The notes beneath the pieces are model-generated. The model was not told the origin of the DNA and did not search any database. It was given only the letters and a program-made list of their open reading frames with translations. DNA of 5,446 nt from a virus. Location of the stretch: the IMG/VR virus record IMGVR_UViG_3300045988_001638, positions 1 to 5,446 of that record. One strand, 5' to 3'. Made by a program: the position numbers and the translations under genes. Position 1 is the first letter of the stretch, and each line of letters begins with the position of its first letter. Shown piece after piece: positions 1-5,446 of the stretch.

Positions 1-55
1 AGAGTTTATTACAGACAAAGGAAAAGAATATCGTGATTACAACTATTTAAACGCA
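1..55. repeat. Terminal redundancy, copy 1. Identical to 5392-5446, marking a closed circular genome of 5,391 nt.
   Basis: Base-by-base comparison shows agagtttattacagacaaaggaaaagaatatcgtgattacaactatttaaacgca at both 1-55 and 5392-5446 (offset 5391). The reading frame is continuous across the junction. A 55-nt overlap is typical of a k-mer overlap in a circular assembly. Confidence 0.95.
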
Positions 56-1204
56 CACTTCGATATAACAGCAGCCAATAAAGGCTTAAAATACACCTAC
101 AAAACAAGCACACAACAAATACAAGGAAAACTAAGCGGATTCGCAAAATTGAATGAGCCTAATTCATTACATGAAGTTCCATTAACACAATTCGATACAC
201 TAAGAGAAAATATCCTAAAGGCAGGTAAAGAAATATATTCACTAGAGGCATCAACAAATGATTTAACACTAGCAACCTTAGACAGAAATACGGAAACAGG
301 GCAACTCTATGCAGCAACAGCAGGAAATGGATTATTATTAAAAACATATCAATCTGATAAATTTAACAACTGGATTTCAACAGAATGGATAGATGGAGAA
401 AATGGAATCAGTGCAGTAACAGCAATTAGTACAGCGGGGGATAAATTCACAATAGACCAGTTAAATCTGTCGAAAAAAGTATACGACATGTTGAACCGAA
501 TAGCAATAAGTGGTGGGACATATCAAGATTGGGTAGAAACCGTGTATACATCAGGCTGGGAAATGCACACAGAAACACCCGTATATGAGGGTGGAATGTC
601 AGCGGAAATAGAATTCCAAGAAGTAGTAAGTACAGCAGCAACAACAGAGGAAGCACTAGGATCACTAGCAGGAAGAGGTAAAGATACAAATAAGAAAGGC
701 GGACAATTACACATAAAAATAAAAGAGCCATGTTATATCATGGGAATAGTAAGTATAACACCACGAGTAGATTACTGCCAAGGGAATGACTGGGATATAT
801 TCCAGCTAAAGACAATGGACGATCTACACAAGCCAGCACTAGATGGAATAGGCTATCAAGACTTACTTACTTACGAAATGGCAAGTTGGGGAGGCACTGA
901 AAATGCGAAATCGGTGGGAAAACAACCAGCATGGATAAATTACATGACAAACTGGAATAAGACTTACGGAACTTTCGCAGAACAAGGGAATGAGGCATTT
1001 ATGGTACTAAATAGATACTATGAACCAATTAACGGAACTTTTGATTCAGGAAAAGAAATAGACGCAAGTACATACATAGACCCAAGTAAGTATAACTATA
1101 TATTCGCTGAAACAAATGCAGAAAGCCAAAATTTTTGGGTACAACTAGGATTCGCAATCGAAGCAAGGAGAATGATGTCAGCAAAACAAATACCAAACTT
1201 ATAA
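1..1204 (+). CDS. VP1: Microviridae major capsid protein (VP1 / F-like), C-terminal part. Continues 4700-5446 across the circular junction.
   Basis: Frame 2 is open from position 2, with no stop before the TTG at 149 that the track used as a start. It is in phase with 4700-5446 because 5391 is divisible by 3. Position 1 is the third base of a Val codon. Stop TAA at 1202-1204. The joined ORF is 692+1204 = 1896 nt, or 631 aa. That size and the sequence character fit the large VP1 of non-phiX microviruses. Confidence 0.92.
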   Translation, partial: EFITDKGKEYRDYNYLNAHFDITAANKGLKYTYKTSTQQIQGKLSGFAKLNEPNSLHEVPLTQFDTLRENILKAGKEIYSLEASTNDLTLATLDRNTETGQLYAATAGNGLLLKTYQSDKFNNWISTEWIDGENGISAVTAISTAGDKFTIDQLNLSKKVYDMLNRIAISGGTYQDWVETVYTSGWEMHTETPVYEGGMSAEIEFQEVVSTAATTEEALGSLAGRGKDTNKKGGQLHIKIKEPCYIMGIVSITPRVDYCQGNDWDIFQLKTMDDLHKPALDGIGYQDLLTYEMASWGGTENAKSVGKQPAWINYMTNWNKTYGTFAEQGNEAFMVLNRYYEPINGTFDSGKEIDASTYIDPSKYNYIFAETNAESQNFWVQLGFAIEARRMMSAKQIPNL

Positions 1205-1206
1205 CT

Positions 1207-1524
1207 ATGAAAAGAAAAATACTAACAATAAAACCAACAACAGGATTCATACCAGTGTATGACGGTGAAAGCATTGAAACAAAAGTCGAAAGAGTCGTCC
1301 AGAACAAAGAACCAATCGAAGACGGTGCTGAAATAATATACACTGAAAAAAAACAAGGAGTGCAACCACAATACGACATAAGAACCGACAAATGGGAAAT
1401 AGCACAAAAAGCAATGGGTCTAGCACACGCAAACAGAATAGCCAAATCAGACGGAAGTTTAGACAAATGGCAACAAGAACAAGAACAACAGCAGCAACAG
1501 CAGCAACAACAAAAAAATGAATGA
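1207..1524 (+). CDS. Small microvirus protein of 105 aa with a C-terminal poly-Q tail. Function unknown; a VP3-like internal scaffolding role is possible from its position but unproven.
   Basis: The first ATG in this frame is at 1207, 2 nt after the VP1 stop, in the junction TAACTATG. The same junction precedes VP1 at 4700. The track start at 1135 is a TTG that overlaps VP1 by 70 nt and is less likely. The product MKRKILTIKPTTGFIPVYDGE...DIRTDKWEIAQKAM...QQEQEQQQQQQQQQKNE is hydrophilic, with codon usage like its neighbours. Stop TGA at 1522-1524. Confidence 0.7.
   Translation: MKRKILTIKPTTGFIPVYDGESIETKVERVVQNKEPIEDGAEIIYTEKKQGVQPQYDIRTDKWEIAQKAMGLAHANRIAKSDGSLDKWQQEQEQQQQQQQQQKNE
1471..1512 (+). 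repeat. In-frame CAR/GAA trinucleotide tract encoding QQEQEQQQQQQQQQ; nine uninterrupted Gln codons at 1486-1512.
   Basis: Codons read directly: caa caa gaa caa gaa caa cag cag caa cag cag caa caa caa. The tract sits at the 3' end of ORF 1207-1524. Confidence 0.9.
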
Positions 1525-1552
1525 TAATTAACACCGAAATATCGGTATGTGC

Positions 1553-1579
1553 ATAAGGGGTTTTTATACCCCTTATTTA
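1553..1579 (+). terminator. Hairpin followed by a short T run. Possible weak, attenuating intrinsic terminator after the capsid and small-protein genes.
   Basis: 9-bp stem ATAAGGGGT (1553-1561) / ACCCCTTAT (1568-1576) with loop TTTTAT, followed by only TT. A smaller hairpin ACCGA/TCGGT lies at 1533-1546 just upstream. Confidence 0.4.
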
Positions 1580-1582
1580 ACA

Positions 1583-1607
1583 AGTAGCGAGTTAATATTA
1601 CGCTACT
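1583..1607 (+). promoter_or_regulatory. Stem-loop carrying TAATATTAC in the loop. Candidate rolling-circle (+)-strand origin and nick site.
   Basis: Perfect 7-bp stem AGTAGCG (1583-1589) / CGCTACT (1601-1607) with 11-nt loop AGTTAATATTA. TAATATTAC occupies 1593-1601, and its last C is the first base of the 3' arm. It lies on the + strand, which is both the coding strand and the presumed virion strand, in an intergenic region. Confidence 0.5.
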
Positions 1608-1634
1608 GCACATTATTATCTAGTTACTAACAAT

Positions 1635-1651
1635 CGCTTTTCAAAAAAGCG
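1635..1651 (+). other. Short hairpin immediately upstream of VP2.
   Basis: Stem CGCTTTT (1635-1641) / AAAAGCG (1645-1651) with a 3-nt loop, 15 nt before the VP2 ATG. Confidence 0.5.
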
Positions 1652-1666
1652 CGAAAATCAATCACT

Positions 1667-2713
1667 ATGGGATTAAATGCAGGTAAAATGCTAGGAAGTG
1701 CAGCGCTAGACGGACTGACGGGAGGCGTCGGAGGACTAGTCTCAGGAGCAGTAGGAGGAATAGGCTCACTATTAGGCTTAGGCTCAAGAAAGGAAAAGAA
1801 AGCACGAGAAGCCGAAGAAAGAGAACATCAAAGGCAACTTGAATACATGGCTCTACAAGCAAAATATAACAAAGAACAGGCAGAATATTCCACAGAACTC
1901 GGCAAGGAAATGTGGGATTATACCAACTTTGAGAATCAAAAAAAACATTTGGAAGCAGCAGGACTGAATCCAGCACTACTATACGGAAACAGTGGCGGTG
2001 GCGGTGGAAGTGCAGCAGGCAGCGGAAGTGCAGCAGGCGTAGGGTTGCCATCATCAACAGGGGTAGGAATGGGCATCCAGTGGGAACAAATGGAAGCTCA
2101 AAAAGAGCTGGCTAAGGCAGAAGCCGCGAAAACAAACGCGGAGGCAGCTAAATTAATGACAACAGACACTGAAAAAGTTAAGTCAGAAACTGAAAAAAAT
2201 AAACAAGATATCAAAGAATCAGAAAAGAGAATAGAATCACTTACAAGTCAAACTCACAAAATAAACGAAGAAAGCAAAGGTATAGAATTTAACAATTATC
2301 TGAACGAACTAAGAAAAAACATCAAGCTGAGTGGAGAAGTAAATGGCAAGACAGTATGGACTAAGGGATTTGACGAGATTTTCAAGGAAAATGAACTACA
2401 AAGAATGTTAGCAGACTACGGAATATCACAGAAAGAATACCAAGAGGCAAAAAATGACAAGGAAGTAGCTATGAGGCTATCTGATGCTCTCAATGAGATT
2501 GCTAACGGAAAAATAGCGGTATTCGGCAAAATGGTAGAAGAGGCCCAACAGGCAAAAAATGAAACAGCTATACAAAAATGGCAGTTCGAACAGGACAAAG
2601 CACTCAGTGATTTAATCAACGATATAGGTGGAGAAGGAAAATACGGAAAACTACTAACAAAGATAATCAGCGCAATATTTAGCAAATGGCGCGGATATGG
2701 AGGAAAAAAATAA
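1667..2713 (+). CDS. VP2: Microviridae VP2 (minor capsid / DNA pilot protein, functional analogue of phiX174 H).
   Basis: 348 aa. N-terminal Gly/small-residue hydrophobic segment GSAALDGLTGGVGGLVSGAVGGIGSLLGLG (nt 1694-1783). The block WDYTNFENQKKHLEAAGLNPALLYG (GLNPALLYG at 1961-1987) is characteristic of gokusho/alpa-type VP2. This is followed by a poly-Gly/Ser/Ala linker and then a long K/E/Q-rich region that looks coiled-coil. It sits between the capsid module and Rep. Stop TAA at 2711-2713. Confidence 0.85.
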   Translation: MGLNAGKMLGSAALDGLTGGVGGLVSGAVGGIGSLLGLGSRKEKKAREAEEREHQRQLEYMALQAKYNKEQAEYSTELGKEMWDYTNFENQKKHLEAAGLNPALLYGNSGGGGGSAAGSGSAAGVGLPSSTGVGMGIQWEQMEAQKELAKAEAAKTNAEAAKLMTTDTEKVKSETEKNKQDIKESEKRIESLTSQTHKINEESKGIEFNNYLNELRKNIKLSGEVNGKTVWTKGFDEIFKENELQRMLADYGISQKEYQEAKNDKEVAMRLSDALNEIANGKIAVFGKMVEEAQQAKNETAIQKWQFEQDKALSDLINDIGGEGKYGKLLTKIISAIFSKWRGYGGKK

Positions 2714-3633
2714 TGTGCCTTTATACAAAATACATAACAAACCCAAAATACTTGCCAAATAAGAAAAATAATTACAGTCCGCCTGCCTGCAAAGACAGGC
2801 GGTTGTTATATGTGCCAGTGAAATGCGGAAAATGTATGGAGTGCAGAAAACAAAATCAAAGTCAGTGGGTAGTAAGGCTCTCGGAAGAAATCAGGAAAGA
2901 ACCTGAAGCACTATTTGTAACACTAACATTCAACGAAGAAAGTTACAAGGAGTTAGCGACCATCACGAAAAATGAAAATGAAATGTGTAGAATAGCACTA
3001 AGAAGAATGCTTGAAAACTACAGAGTACAGAATAAACGCACGATAAAACACTGGGTAGCAACAGAACTAGGCGATGACGGTAGGATACATATGCACGGAA
3101 TATTCTGGACTAACAAGGAAGTAATAGAAAAATATTGGAAATACGGCTTTATATTTATTGGAACATGGGTAAATGAACAGACAATATTTTACATCACAAA
3201 ATACATTATGAAAGTATCAACAGTAGACAAGAATTTCACACCAAAAATACTATGCAGCAAAGGAATAGGAAGTAGCTATCTCAAAAGAGGTGATGTAAGG
3301 AACAACAGATACAAAAAAAATGACACAGACGAATCATACAGGCTAAGGGACGGCAGAAAAATATCACTACCTGATTATTACAAGAGAAAAATATACTCAG
3401 AAGAAGAACGGGAAAAACTTTGGATCGAAAAACAAGAAAGAGGTTACCGCTATATTATGGGCGAAAAAGTAGACGTAGACAACGAACAAGAATATTTCAG
3501 TATACTCAATTTCTATCGTGAGAAAGCAAAACGAATCCTGAACGAAAAACCGCAAGATTGGGACAAAGAAAAGCACAAAAAACAACTTAAAAAACTTAAA
3601 GAATACAGAAAAAGATTTAAAAGCGGTTGTTAA
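2713..3633 (+). CDS. VP4: Microviridae VP4 replication initiator (HUH rolling-circle endonuclease, phiX174 A-like).
   Basis: Start chosen at ATG 2713, which overlaps the VP2 stop (TAATG) and has GGAGG at 2699-2703, 9 nt upstream. The track start at 2686 lies inside VP2. Motifs: CGKCMECR (2824-2847), RCR motif I LFVTLTF (2911-2931), HUH motif HMHGIFW (His codons 3088-3090 and 3094-3096), and two-tyrosine motif III YITKYIMK (3190-3213; compare phiX174 A YVAKYVNK). Stop TAA at 3631-3633. Confidence 0.92.
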   Translation: MCLYTKYITNPKYLPNKKNNYSPPACKDRRLLYVPVKCGKCMECRKQNQSQWVVRLSEEIRKEPEALFVTLTFNEESYKELATITKNENEMCRIALRRMLENYRVQNKRTIKHWVATELGDDGRIHMHGIFWTNKEVIEKYWKYGFIFIGTWVNEQTIFYITKYIMKVSTVDKNFTPKILCSKGIGSSYLKRGDVRNNRYKKNDTDESYRLRDGRKISLPDYYKRKIYSEEEREKLWIEKQERGYRYIMGEKVDVDNEQEYFSILNFYREKAKRILNEKPQDWDKEKHKKQLKKLKEYRKRFKSGC

Positions 3634-3647
3634 TAACCGCTTTTTTT
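3619..3647 (+). terminator. Rho-independent terminator closing the single + strand transcription unit.
   Basis: 10-bp stem AAAAGCGGTT (3619-3628) / AACCGCTTTT (3635-3644) with loop GTTAAT, which contains the VP4 stop codon. The stem runs into a T7 tract (3641-3647). Confidence 0.8.
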
Positions 3648-3648
3648 G

Positions 3649-3722
3649 TGTTGATAAGTGTGTAAAATCGGTTGATAAGTATGCAAAATCGGTTAATAAA
3701 CATGTTGATAACTTGTTGATAA
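3649..3722 (-). repeat. Left iteron cluster: five phased copies of TGTTGATAA-like 9-mers (TTATCAACA on the minus strand).
   Basis: TGTTGATAA at 3649-3657, 3703-3711 and 3714-3722. GGTTGATAA at 3670-3678. GGTTAATAA at 3691-3699. Start spacing is 21, 21, 12 and 11 nt. The middle copies sit in a 21-nt tandem duplication (3661-3681 vs 3682-3702, 17/21 identical). Confidence 0.85.
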
Positions 3723-3815
3723 AAAAATAACTTTTTAACACTTTATTAAGATTTGATTTATATATAGAAAAAAGATTTATATTTCAAAATTTAAAGATAT
3801 GAAGTTATAAAAAAG

Positions 3816-3879
3816 TTATGAACAGAGTTATTAACAAGATAAGTGGCTATATTTCAGGCTATTAACATAGTTATGAACA
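3816..3879 (+). repeat. Right iteron cluster: four copies of TTAT(G/T)AACA in the opposite orientation to the left cluster.
   Basis: TTATGAACA at 3816-3824 and 3871-3879, each inside the exact 12-mer AGTTATGAACAG (3814-3825 and 3869-3880). TTATTAACA at 3828-3836. cTATTAACA at 3859-3867. Start spacing is 12, 31 and 12 nt. Confidence 0.8.
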
Positions 3880-3901
3880 GTTTCAACAGCCTATTATTAT
3901 C

Positions 3902-3915
3902 ATATATATATATAT
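3902..3915. repeat. (AT)7 dinucleotide repeat within an extremely AT-rich stretch.
   Basis: atatatatatatat read directly. The flanking 12-mer TATATAGAAAAA occurs at both 3761-3772 and 3919-3930. Confidence 0.9.
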
Positions 3916-4007
3916 GTTTATATAGAAAAATATAAATATTATAATGATAGTACGGTTTCCATGCAACATCCATGTATCAGGAAGTGAGAGCCAAATAATA
4001 ATTTTTA

Positions 4008-4172
4008 CGCGGGCAAGGTGTCAACATCCGAGGGAAGCTCGCACTCTGTGCGCCGGAATCAGGCTACATGTCACACGGCAGCACTAAGTTATCTAAGGTG
4101 CTAACGCTATCGGGGCTACGCGCCCCTATACCCCTCGTACGCAACATAGTTGCGATTATCTATGCCTACGGC
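4008..4172 (+). other. GC-rich, hairpin-dense non-coding island. Candidate complementary-strand (ssDNA) origin or structured ncRNA; class unknown.
   Basis: By hand count, 93 of 165 nt are G/C (about 56%), against a very AT-rich context. Local hairpins: CGCAC/GTGCG (4040-4052), AGCAC/GTGCT (4080-4102), GGGGC/GCCCC (4112-4126) and CGCAAC/GTTGCG (4140-4154). A possible enclosing helix CGAGGG (4029-4034) / CCCTCG (4132-4137) would give a four-way junction. There is no convincing ORF. Confidence 0.45.
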
Positions 4173-4185
4173 AATTTTAACTAAA

Positions 4186-4222
4186 TATATTTGGTACTTT
4201 CGGAAAAAATACAGTACATTTG
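4186..4222 (+). promoter_or_regulatory. Bacteroidetes-type promoter (-33 TTTG / -7 TAnnTTTG) driving the whole gene set.
   Basis: TACATTTG at 4215-4222 matches the -7 consensus TAnnTTTG. TTTG at 4190-4193 lies 21 nt upstream of it, within the reported 19-21 nt spacing. A second TAnnTTTG match (TATATTTG, 4186-4193) overlaps the -33 element. The first ORF starts 30 nt downstream at 4252. Confidence 0.55.
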
Positions 4223-4251
4223 TGCAAAACAAATAAATATATAGGGAAAAA

Positions 4252-4464
4252 ATGAAAATTGATGAAAAGTACAAAAAACTGATTCGTGAAATCACAATTG
4301 CAGTATTATCAGCTATCCTGACATGGTTAGGAGTAAGTTGCACCAACATGTTGAGTATTCAGAAAAATGTGAAAGAAAGCAACATGAAAACAGAGAATAA
4401 GACAGACGGGAAAGTAAGTGCTGACAGCACAAGTATTAATTTATTTAACAAGGAGGACAAATAA
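4252..4464 (+). CDS. Small membrane or lipoprotein-like protein (70 aa), function unknown.
   Basis: ATG at 4252 is the first start after the promoter. The product has a charged N-terminus MKIDEKYKKLIRE, a hydrophobic segment ITIAVLSAILTWLGVS (nt 4291-4338), then Cys30 (4339-4341) and a hydrophilic 40-aa tail. Stop TAA at 4462-4464 overlaps the next ATG. Confidence 0.6.
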   Translation: MKIDEKYKKLIREITIAVLSAILTWLGVSCTNMLSIQKNVKESNMKTENKTDGKVSADSTSINLFNKEDK

Positions 4465-4697
4465 TGAATTTAAATGAATTATTTAAAATCAGACCAACAA
4501 GTGAAGAACAAAATGATTTTATAACAACAGTAGGGGAACATCTGGCTACAGAGAAACATTTCAAAACACGTGAAGAAGCAGAAAAATACATAGAGACACC
4601 GCAATGGGATATGATTCTAGCTGTGATGGCAGAAATGTTAACCATTCACGAAGAAGTAAAGCACAAAGAAGATATTGAAAATACTAAAAATAAATAA
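4464..4697 (+). CDS. Small acidic, predicted helical protein (77 aa), function unknown.
   Basis: ATG at 4464 overlaps the upstream stop (TAATG). AGGAGG at 4451-4456 lies 7 nt upstream. The product MNLNELFKIRPTSEEQNDFITTVGEHLATEKHFKTREEAEKYIETPQWDMILAVMAEM... resembles small conserved ORFs I recall seeing next to capsid genes in gut microviruses; this is unverified memory. Stop TAA at 4695-4697. Confidence 0.65.
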   Translation: MNLNELFKIRPTSEEQNDFITTVGEHLATEKHFKTREEAEKYIETPQWDMILAVMAEMLTIHEEVKHKEDIENTKNK

Positions 4698-4699
4698 CT

Positions 4700-5446
4700 A
4701 TGACAATAAAAAAATCAATAGGGAAAAATACAATAGGAGGCGGAAGTAAAATGACCGTCGACCTACACACGTACAACAGAAGTACACACAATCTATCATA
4801 CGCGTGGAGAAGTAGCATGGGGGTAGGAACACTAGTTCCATGCATGAAAATAGTGGGATTACCAGGAGATACATTTGATATTGCAATAGATACAAGAGTA
4901 AATACACATCCAACAGTAGGCCCACTATTCGGTAGTTACAAATTACAAGTAGACATATTCACGGCGCCATTCCGATTATATAACGCGATGCTGCATAACA
5001 ACGCATTAAATGTTGGTATGGATATGAGCAAGGTAAAATTGCCTCAAATAAAAATAAAAATAAATGAAAAGGACAATCCTATCGACTCAACACATTTAAC
5101 ATTCTCATCATCAAGTATATTAGCATACTTGGGAATAAGAGGATTTTCAAACCAAATCAAAGAGACAGAAGTGACAATACCAAACGCAGTACCATTACTG
5201 ACATATTGGGATATTTTCAAAAACTATTACGCAAACAAACAGGAAGAAAAATGCAAGATACTAATGAAAGGCAATAAGGCCTACACAGTTGAAGATAAAT
5301 TGACTTATAACCACGTCGGCGAAACAATAGTTACGGGAGGTTATTTCATAATTCCAGGAGCAAATATAAACAGCAAAATAAAAATAGAAGTAGAGTTTAT
5401 TACAGACAAAGGAAAAGAATATCGTGATTACAACTATTTAAACGCA
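4700..5446 (+). CDS. VP1: Microviridae major capsid protein VP1, N-terminal 249 codons. Runs off the window end and continues at position 1. Absent from the supplied ORF track.
   Basis: I translated frame 2 from ATG 4700 by hand and found no stop through 5446. The product begins MTIKKSIGKNTIGGGSKMTVDLHTYNRSTHNLSYAWRSSMGVGTLVPCMKIVGLPGDTFDIAIDTRVNTHPTVGPLFGSYKLQVDIFTAPFRLYN...LLTYWDIFKNYYANKQEE. The blocks STHNLS...GTLVP...LPGDTFDI, GPLFGSYK.Q.D.F..P.RLY and YWDIF.NYY.N are hallmark N-terminal VP1/F-family blocks. An alternative in-frame start is ATG 4751, preceded by AGGAGG at 4735-4740. Confidence 0.9.
   Translation, partial: MTIKKSIGKNTIGGGSKMTVDLHTYNRSTHNLSYAWRSSMGVGTLVPCMKIVGLPGDTFDIAIDTRVNTHPTVGPLFGSYKLQVDIFTAPFRLYNAMLHNNALNVGMDMSKVKLPQIKIKINEKDNPIDSTHLTFSSSSILAYLGIRGFSNQIKETEVTIPNAVPLLTYWDIFKNYYANKQEEKCKILMKGNKAYTVEDKLTYNHVGETIVTGGYFIIPGANINSKIKIEVEFITDKGKEYRDYNYLNA
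5392..5446. repeat. Terminal redundancy, copy 2 (identical to 1-55).
   Basis: Exact 55/55 identity with the window start. Confidence 0.95.

Follow-up and report, generated by a model that had tools for sequence, protein, structure and literature searches.

Among the closest described counterparts of the locus reported here are chromosomal replication origins, including the origin of Escherichia coli, oriC. There, AT-rich 13-mers are followed after 13 nt by the box TGTGGATAA (R1), then by further sites, and then by TTATACACA (R2) and TTATCCACA (R4); the sequence was verified in 5425 of 5426 genomes, where it matched at 100% identity in the interval from mnmG to mioC. An oriC-type origin may also hold a run of DnaA-trios, 3'-[G/A]AT-5' repeats, which would be expected between its AT tract and the box closest to it. 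Textbook replication of the microvirus phiX174 involves only a phage nickase, a host helicase and polymerase, and a primosome site, and microvirus replication is not known to involve the chromosomal initiator. We examined a microvirus genome (IMG/VR record IMGVR_UViG_3300045988_001638, positions 1 to 5,446; this whole stretch of 5,446 nt is called the window) that carries, directly after the gene of its replication protein VP4, two opposed arrays of a DnaA-box-like 9-mer beside AT-rich DNA. Read on the minus strand, the phage locus runs from an AT tract through 11-12 nt to an array in the TGTT.ATAA sense, a spacer, and an array in the TTAT.AACA sense.

Several cellular origins are of direct relevance to this layout. 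In Cyanothece, the 9-mer TTATCAACA appears among the listed DnaA boxes. For Thermoanaerobacter tengcongensis the published consensus box is TTATCNACA, an oligonucleotide carrying TGTTGATAA and TGTGGATAA 3 bp apart was among the electrophoretic mobility shift assay (EMSA) substrates used for testing TtDnaA binding, and the origin of this organism holds two box groups with an 89-bp AT-rich spacing between them (PMC1888806). A further paper also gives oriC oligonucleotides (PMC2887958). In origins termed bilateral, which have been documented as well, box clusters flank the unwinding element (PMC13643167).

The pattern in the phage is real, strongly conserved and non-random. We tentatively read the region 3628-3950 as an oriC-like module for host-DnaA assembly and unwinding on the double-stranded replicative form, a reading whose probability we place a little short of even. 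The opposed arrays of boxes with A at position 6 (A6 boxes, TTATNAACA) would nucleate oligomers of the host initiator DnaA, and the right array points, in the R1 sense, to the adjacent AT tract at 3891-3950, which would open. The opened DNA would then serve phage replication, either through helicase loading and priming or through exposure of single-stranded DNA (ssDNA) to the VP4 nickase.

Opposed box arrays beside AT-rich DNA

The original prediction described nine copies of the 9-mer in two clusters, and its box coordinates, orientations and spacings all proved correct when both clusters were checked against the sequence. On the + strand, the left boxes read TGTTGATAA at 3649, 3703 and 3714, GGTTGATAA at 3670 and GGTTAATAA at 3691 (spacing 21/21/12/11), which is TTATNAAC(A/C), or TTAT-N-AAC(A/C), on the minus strand. 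The right boxes read TTATGAACA at 3816 and 3871, TTATTAACA at 3828 and, with one mismatch, cTATTAACA at 3859 (spacing 12/31/12). A tenth copy, TGTTAATAA, was found at 3628-3636 within the loop and stem of the VP4 terminator hairpin at 3619-3644, and a degenerate box, TTATAAAAA at 3804, lengthens the right array. Non-coding DNA thus holds two opposed clusters, in which neighbouring boxes are separated by 2-3 bp or share one helical face. A 21-nt tandem repeat takes in the first three boxes on the left, a repeat whose copy number differs between relatives, with one unit fewer in the alignment of MT135366. We also considered GTTTCAACA at 3880-3888 as an extra phased box; it is conserved, but it abuts box 3871 at a 9-nt offset and was rejected.

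Enrichment over shuffled sequence, which had been proposed as a check, was clearly observed. All seven exact matches to TTATNAACA on both strands fall in 3628-3879, compared with a shuffle mean of 0.54, and none of 200 shuffles reached seven. The pattern TTATNAAC[A/C] gave nine matches where 0.97 were expected (0/200 shuffles reached nine). The constant C6-to-A deviation from the classical DnaA box was likewise seen, with A at position 6 in all copies, so that the phage boxes depart throughout from the strict E. coli consensus TTATNCACA.

Both AT-rich blocks were present as first described. The count of 12 G/C in 3721-3815 was reproduced (12 in 3723-3815, the two added bases being A), and the second block, to the right of the arrays, includes (AT)n at 3902-3943. 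Compared with a genome mean of -49.1 kcal/mol (standard deviation 4.3) for 40-bp windows, the least stable window genome-wide was 3904-3943 at -33.5 kcal/mol, followed by 3756-3795 at -37.0 kcal/mol. Of 26 box-positive genomes, 25 had their least stable 40-bp duplex no more than 100 nt beyond the right end of the right array, and the central spacer was the second least stable window in group A only. Among relatives, this spacer measures 20-136 nt, most commonly ~50 or ~93-104, with an A+T content of 70-90%. The suggested arrangement of phased boxes and an easily melted spacer holds in its oriC-like layout; however, it is on the right flank and not in the central spacer that melt-prone DNA is most conserved. 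This AT-rich element adjoins the array on the side to which the proximal box points, the same orientation as that of R1 and the DNA-unwinding element (DUE) in E. coli. Because bilateral origins are documented, the central spacer stays a second candidate for opening. After the linker that follows the last box, a DnaA-trio-like run reads CTA TTA TTA in group A versus CTA TCA TAT in group B.

Two relatives are deposited in GenBank (MT135366 and MG945660), and an alignment of VP4 homologues added 80 IMG/VR microvirus loci; all relatives are from animal gut samples. It was noted that MT135366 retains the boxes though its non-coding region is only ~72% identical. Conservation in related non-coding regions, a further check that had been proposed, was found in 31 of the 80 related genomes, where the box pattern directly follows VP4. 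Neither of two outcomes that had been named beforehand as refuting, a lack of enrichment and a lack of conservation, was seen. These 31 box-positive genomes form one clade on the VP4 tree, with the 49 box-negative genomes outside it, and VP4 identity to the window drops to ~47% within the clade. The clade preserves the sequence of the boxes, the way they face and the distances between them (11/12/21/31-33/43 nt), and the array spacing is nearly fixed at 21/21/12/11 on the left and (31)/12/43 on the right. Same-orientation spacings were most often 11 nt (36 counts), 12 (30), 43 (29), 33 (20) and 31 (18); spacings of 11, 12, 21, 31-33 and 43 nt are whole helical turns.

In the alignment of 27 genomes, the left stretch AAAATCGGTTAATAAAC.TGTTGATAAcTTGTTGATAA is nearly invariant, the right stretches AAAAGTTATGAACA.AGTTAT.AACA.GATAA and ATTAACATAGTTATGAACAG, and also ATTAACATAGTTATGAACAGTTTCAACAG, are invariant or nearly so, and the intervening spacer differs between genomes in both sequence and length. 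The non-coding regions of the 31 genomes contain 217 copies of TTATNAACA versus 4 of TTATNCACA, and the remaining 127 kb contain 14 versus 6. Box position 5 is unconstrained (C 0.34, G 0.38, T 0.23), and an A-G flank precedes the phage box, as it does in E. coli R4, AGTTATCCACAGT. No open reading frame (ORF) family was found in all box-positive and no box-negative genomes, the other clusters being common to both or partial in the clade; this leaves either a host protein or one of the core phage proteins as the binder. The sister clades possess an equally large non-coding region after VP4 with no repeated motif in it, and their enriched words all come from a GC-rich element that is described below.

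It was also noted that the GenBank "partial genome" MG945660.1 breaks within the AT-rich box module, ending at ~3766 and restarting at ~4031 in window equivalents. This break suggests that assembly or amplification of the module is difficult, and it may be under-represented among deposited microvirus genomes.

The A6 9-mer in cellular and other phage DNA

We scanned 185,579 species genomes with the pattern TTATNAACA-N(2-32)-TTATNAACA-N(2-32)-TTATNAAC and obtained at least 120 loci; the counts given for cellular genomes refer to the 120 matches listed. Neighbouring dnaA genes were found by tblastn. In 26 of the 120, dnaA, usually with dnaN, directly adjoins the array, and Pfam confirmed DnaA in four loci (Bac_DnaA and Bac_DnaA_C, with DnaA_N in three of the four). 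An origin-type GC-skew switch was seen in 14 of the 15 dnaA-linked loci with sufficient flank. The commonest box spacing of dnaA-linked loci was 11 nt, as in the phage, and many of these origins are without any canonical TTATNCACA. A Bacilli metagenome-assembled genome (MAG; L143) carries AGTTATGAACA seven times upstream of dnaA, and a Bdellovibrionales MAG (L117) possesses TGTTGATAACTTGTTGATAAC beside canonical TTATCCACA boxes, with 20 of 21 bases matching window 3703-3723. Canonical TTATNCACA was 7-13-fold enriched within 250 nt of A6 arrays at dnaA-linked, Bacteroidota and other loci alike, the local enrichment at Bacteroidota arrays being 7-fold.

As judged from these neighbourhoods, the A6 9-mer is a natural DnaA-box variant that is used by natural DnaA-dependent origins. 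Its role as an origin building block is borne out by the arrays that adjoin dnaA and by the T. tengcongensis consensus, and the C6-to-A deviation is therefore no argument against DnaA. Arrays of TTATNAACA are widespread in chromosomal origins and large phages.

Applied to viral contigs, the three-box pattern showed that unrelated large phages interleave A6 boxes with TTATCCACA, TTATACACA or TTATTCACA (L209, L210, L240, L295 and L317). Among the IMG/VR gut phages, mixed arrays of TTATCAACA with one or more of these canonical boxes were located at L209:1029-1175, L210:6460-6628 and L317:6982-7090, between the minor-capsid-protein-2 and scaffold genes and so within a structural module; the L209 and L210 contigs are 50 and 56 kb long. 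In L240, TGTT(G/C)ATAA alternates with TTATCCACA, and L295 contains five TTATCAACAgg units with an 11-nt period.

Bacteroidota loci make up 37 of the 120 matches listed. Bacteroidales intergenic arrays with the same variants and 11-12-nt phasing were found at L089:4730-4795, L133:2789-2845, L193:6474-6700, L083:2507-2590 and L142:1112-1155. The array of L089 (Muribaculaceae) is spaced 21/11/12/12, and that of L193 (Bacteroides sp.) includes GGTTAATAA, TGTTGATAAC and GGTTGATAAG. The L133 array lies upstream of parA-parB, several Bacteroidales arrays adjoin tRNA genes, and the genes that flank Bacteroidota arrays are unrelated to one another. These Bacteroidales arrays may be oriC, datA-like clusters or something else. 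It has been reported that oriC in Bacteroidota lies far from dnaA (PMC4755523).

Genome context, host and a separate GC-rich element

An exact 55-nt terminal redundancy (window 1-55 = 5392-5446) indicates a complete circular genome of 5391 nt, in which every gene is on the + strand (Table 1). The F-type capsid, the pilot protein, the HUH Rep, the ~5-kb circle and the one-strand gene order are those of Microviridae. Several small ORFs were found besides the capsid, pilot and VP4 genes. VP4 has an N-terminal CxxCxxC motif, of which the cysteines C38, C41 and C44 are invariant. Close VP4 homologues are 306 aa long and begin at the second Met (MCLYTKY...), so the true VP4 start is probably at 2713, which would abolish the overlap with the pilot gene end at 2713. 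The sole large non-coding region is 3634-4251, and the box module occupies its first half, right after VP4. One related contig, L203 (IMGVR_UViG_3300045988_002237, 7670 nt), carries VP4 twice, at 912-1793 and 6747-7622, and is longer than one genome unit; it is therefore a concatemeric assembly and not a larger genome.

Table 1. Features of the window, with positions counted from its first nucleotide
Feature	Position	Strand	Evidence or remark
Major capsid protein, F-type	4700..1204, wraps across contig ends	+	PF02305
Pilot protein	1667-2713	+	
VP4, HUH replication initiator (Rep)	2686-3633	+	PF23343 / phrog_942
VP4 terminator hairpin, then T-run	3619..3644	+	Terminator scan; kept in group A relatives
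Left array, six boxes at 3628, 3649, 3670, 3691, 3703, 3714, spacing 21/21/21/12/11	3628..3722	-	Motif matches
21-nt tandem repeat GTTGATAAGTATGCAAAATCG, 2.4 copies, carrying outer left boxes	3650..3699	+	Tandem Repeats Finder
Central AT-rich spacer, 87% A+T	3723..3815	.	Second least stable duplex window at 3756-3795
Right array, boxes 3816, 3828, 3859, 3871, reading TTAT-N-AACA	3816..3879	+	Motif matches
Conserved linker GTTTCAACAGC between last box and AT tract	3880..3890	+	Columns 90-100% conserved
AT tract, 90% A+T, includes (AT)n, candidate DNA-unwinding element	3891..3950	.	Least stable 40-bp duplex inside
GC-rich conserved structured element, separate from box module	3950..4170	+	Common to box-negative relatives; no Rfam match
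Bacteroidota-type promoter TTTG-N21-TACATTTG (see also 4186-4193)	4190..4222	+	Upstream of ORF 4252, first after the non-coding region

The promoter in the second half of the non-coding region bears on the host. Of 83 sequences (82 loci and the window), 41 carried the pattern TTTG-N17-23-TAnnTTTG, which we take to be the Bacteroides promoter consensus, in the 900 nt that follow VP4, versus 2 matches in 282 kb elsewhere. This promoter type, which is all that the host assignment draws on, points to Bacteroidota as the hosts. A sigma-70 scan was at chance, and the sigma-70 model does not apply to Bacteroidota. No prophage of the clade was found in the 120 genome loci listed, which all lacked VP1, VP2 and VP4 and gave no direct host assignment.

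The GC-rich element has ~49% G+C and shows apparent compensatory changes, with GGGGC/GCCCC versus GGGAC/GTCCC and CGCAAC/GTTGCG versus CGCATC/GATGCG. Its core, ..GTGCGCC..ATC(A/T)AAGGTGCTA(G)ACGCT.., is the main non-coding feature of the box-negative relatives. RNAalifold returned two short helices only, from an overly gappy alignment. The element could be a complementary-strand origin on ssDNA or a non-coding RNA. In the Rfam search no family matched, and sub-threshold STnc50 and L20 leader matches reflect the VP4 terminator hairpin. It was noted that some group B genomes (L017 and L022) possess a different GC-rich element, ..GGGAGCCTGCGGCTCC..GCCCG.GAC..C.CGGGC.., 0-150 nt after VP4, which lies upstream of the box module and replaces the downstream element seen in the window. 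Another group B genome, L014, carries the box module alone, without the GC-rich element of the box-negative relatives.

Possible functions and comparison with known systems

RepB of pMV158 binds three 11-bp repeats and geminivirus Rep binds iterons, and the HUH nickase VP4 could likewise bind the phased repeats and thereby be placed at a nick site close by. The arrays start at the VP4 gene end and are inherited strictly with one VP4 clade, the VP4 cysteines noted above are invariant, and 11-12-nt direct repeats by AT-rich DNA are typical of rolling-circle double-strand origins. We nevertheless consider this unlikely. The box sequence stays constant while VP4 diverges to ~47% identity, with no co-variation, and the sister clades have homologous VP4 and no iterons of any sequence there, so iteron binding is not a general VP4 property. 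Known rolling-circle Reps use fewer sites than the 10 or more that the two opposed arrays hold here across 260 bp; identical 9-mers form arrays in dnaA-linked cellular origins and unrelated phages; and no phiX-type nick sequence was found above chance. What the original prediction had said of VP4 as an iteron binder is weakened by the sister clades and the missing co-variation. A very improbable course of events is that the inverted arrays pair in the packaged strand, forming a long hairpin that would act as a complementary-strand origin primed via DnaA, RNA polymerase or primase. Complementarity between the arms 3692-3734 and 3793-3835 reaches 74%, the predicted centroid includes this long-range pairing, and group B genomes of the L014 type, with the box module and without the GC-rich element, hint at functional substitution. 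However, the ssDNA fold of 3645-3900 is no more stable than shuffles (z = -1.37; 20 of 200 shuffles fold as well). On the + strand, both arrays mostly have G, or A/T, as the fifth base, so that most box pairs would carry G.G or A.G mismatches; no compensatory changes were seen among the genomes; and the 11-nt versus 12-nt arm spacings would force bulges. The earlier idea of a DnaA-box ssDNA hairpin of the ABC-primosome kind is accordingly weak.

Two further possibilities keep the boxes as protein-binding sites and give them a role other than that of an origin. As a DnaA sink or modulator of the datA/DARS kind, the module would titrate or recycle DnaA and so disturb initiation in the host, or would couple gene expression and replication of the phage to the DnaA-ATP level of the host. 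All evidence for DnaA-box-type 9-mers applies equally to such a function, the arrays of large phages sit between minor-capsid-protein-2 and scaffold genes, where no origin is expected, and some Bacteroidales arrays are beside tRNA genes without an obvious AT tract (L083 and L089). A simple sink, however, would need neither the oriC-like layout of two arrays nor the tight link between right array and least stable duplex that 25 of 26 genomes conserve, and we regard it as distinctly unlikely. It seems quite improbable that the boxes are operator or architectural sites for the downstream promoter and are bound by a different protein, be it a transcription factor of Bacteroidota, a nucleoid protein or a core protein of the phage. 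The 37 Bacteroidota matches are intergenic arrays not assigned to oriC, and the module is upstream of the only recognisable promoter. Set against this, over 300 nt separate the promoter from the right array in the window, the -7 motif TAnnTTTG is absent from 3620-3960 on either strand, the flanking genes of Bacteroidota arrays are unrelated, and there is no clade-specific phage protein. The original suggestion of operators for an adjacent promoter fared poorly on the -7 motif and on the nearest promoter, which is the one at 4190-4222.

Two other candidates were tried and rejected. For a phiX174-type origin, CAACAGCCTATTATTATCAT (3884-3903) matched CAACTTGATATTAATAACAC at 13 of 20 positions, which is the shuffle level (13-14). 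An iteron-controlled theta replicon of the plasmid RepA type, with 17-22-bp iterons, was set aside on the grounds that VP4 is the sole replication protein and that plasmid similarity is lacking; a search of PLSDB gave no meaningful plasmid similarity for the phage genome.

Several points weigh against host-DnaA assembly at the module as well. Known microvirus replication, as in phiX174, needs no DnaA. The phage boxes are all A6 (217 versus 4 canonical) with no canonical high-affinity anchor box, and the DnaA-trio-like run CTA TTA TTA is not kept in group B. Of the 120 matches listed, 94 have no dnaA next to them and some are simple tandem repeats, so an array of the 9-mer is not diagnostic alone. 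Among the Bacteroidota arrays listed, a GC-skew switch was seen in 10 of 18 and none adjoins dnaA, and a literature search for a Bacteroidota DnaA-box consensus returned nothing usable. The host phylum is deduced from the promoter type only, and the weakest link is the presumed box preference of the host.

What is new here is a candidate DnaA-box origin-type module in an unexpected replicon. The literature search found no paper with both "Microviridae" and "DnaA box", and among the best matches of a broader search none linked microviruses with iterons or DnaA. A doubtful but far-reaching extension of host-DnaA assembly is that the clade acquired a working DnaA-dependent oriC-like origin, through which the replicative form would be opened and replicated by the initiation machinery of the host chromosome, independently of or together with VP4 rolling-circle replication. 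If so, gut Bacteroidota could carry a lytic-type ssDNA phage over time as a plasmid-like episome, and its host range would be tied to DnaA-box specificity. An oriC-like module kept throughout a clade of gut microviruses would imply a second, host-initiator-dependent step in the replication or persistence of ssDNA phages, and would offer a possible explanation for the long-term gut carriage of microviruses without integrases. The module would also offer a handle for host prediction, as the phage box variant should match the DnaA boxes of the host, and a compact candidate origin for Bacteroidota genetic tools.

Compared with known systems, the ABC-primosome A site and datA/DARS resemble the phage locus in having DnaA boxes outside oriC, for ssDNA priming or for DnaA modulation. 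The A site differs in being a single box in a stable hairpin, a structure that the folding result did not support for the phage region, and datA and DARS are without an adjacent unwinding element. The Rep repeats of rolling-circle replicons (the pMV158 bind locus and geminivirus or circovirus iterons) are also short phased direct repeats in the element of an HUH Rep. These iterons number 2-5 copies, co-vary with Rep and flank a nick-site hairpin, whereas the phage has at least 10 boxes that are invariant across divergent Reps and stand in opposed arrays with no recognised nick-site hairpin.

The oriC of E. coli shares with the phage two opposed arrays of 9-mers 2-3 bp apart, an AT-rich unwinding element beyond one array, a box nearest the AT tract that is in the R1 orientation and 11-13 nt away, and a total length of ~260-320 bp. 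It differs in that the phage boxes are A6 and not C6, without a canonical high-affinity anchor box and without GATC sites, and in being a chromosomal origin, whereas the phage is a 5.4-kb rolling-circle ssDNA replicon for which DnaA binding is presumed. The T. tengcongensis oriC (PMC1888806) is similar in its consensus, which includes TTATCAACA, in EMSA substrates with boxes 3 bp apart, and in two box groups with an AT cluster in the 89-bp spacing between them. It mixes C6 and A6 boxes upstream of dnaA, whereas the phage has A6 boxes only, with position 5 rarely A. The dnaA-linked origins that consist almost entirely of TTATNAACA (for example L143, L122, L126 and L117) differ in being cellular, beside dnaA/dnaN, and from phyla other than the presumed host phylum, but they possess the same 9-mer, the same AGTTATGAACA flank and the same 11-nt phasing, and they share identical 20-23-nt two-box stretches with the phage.

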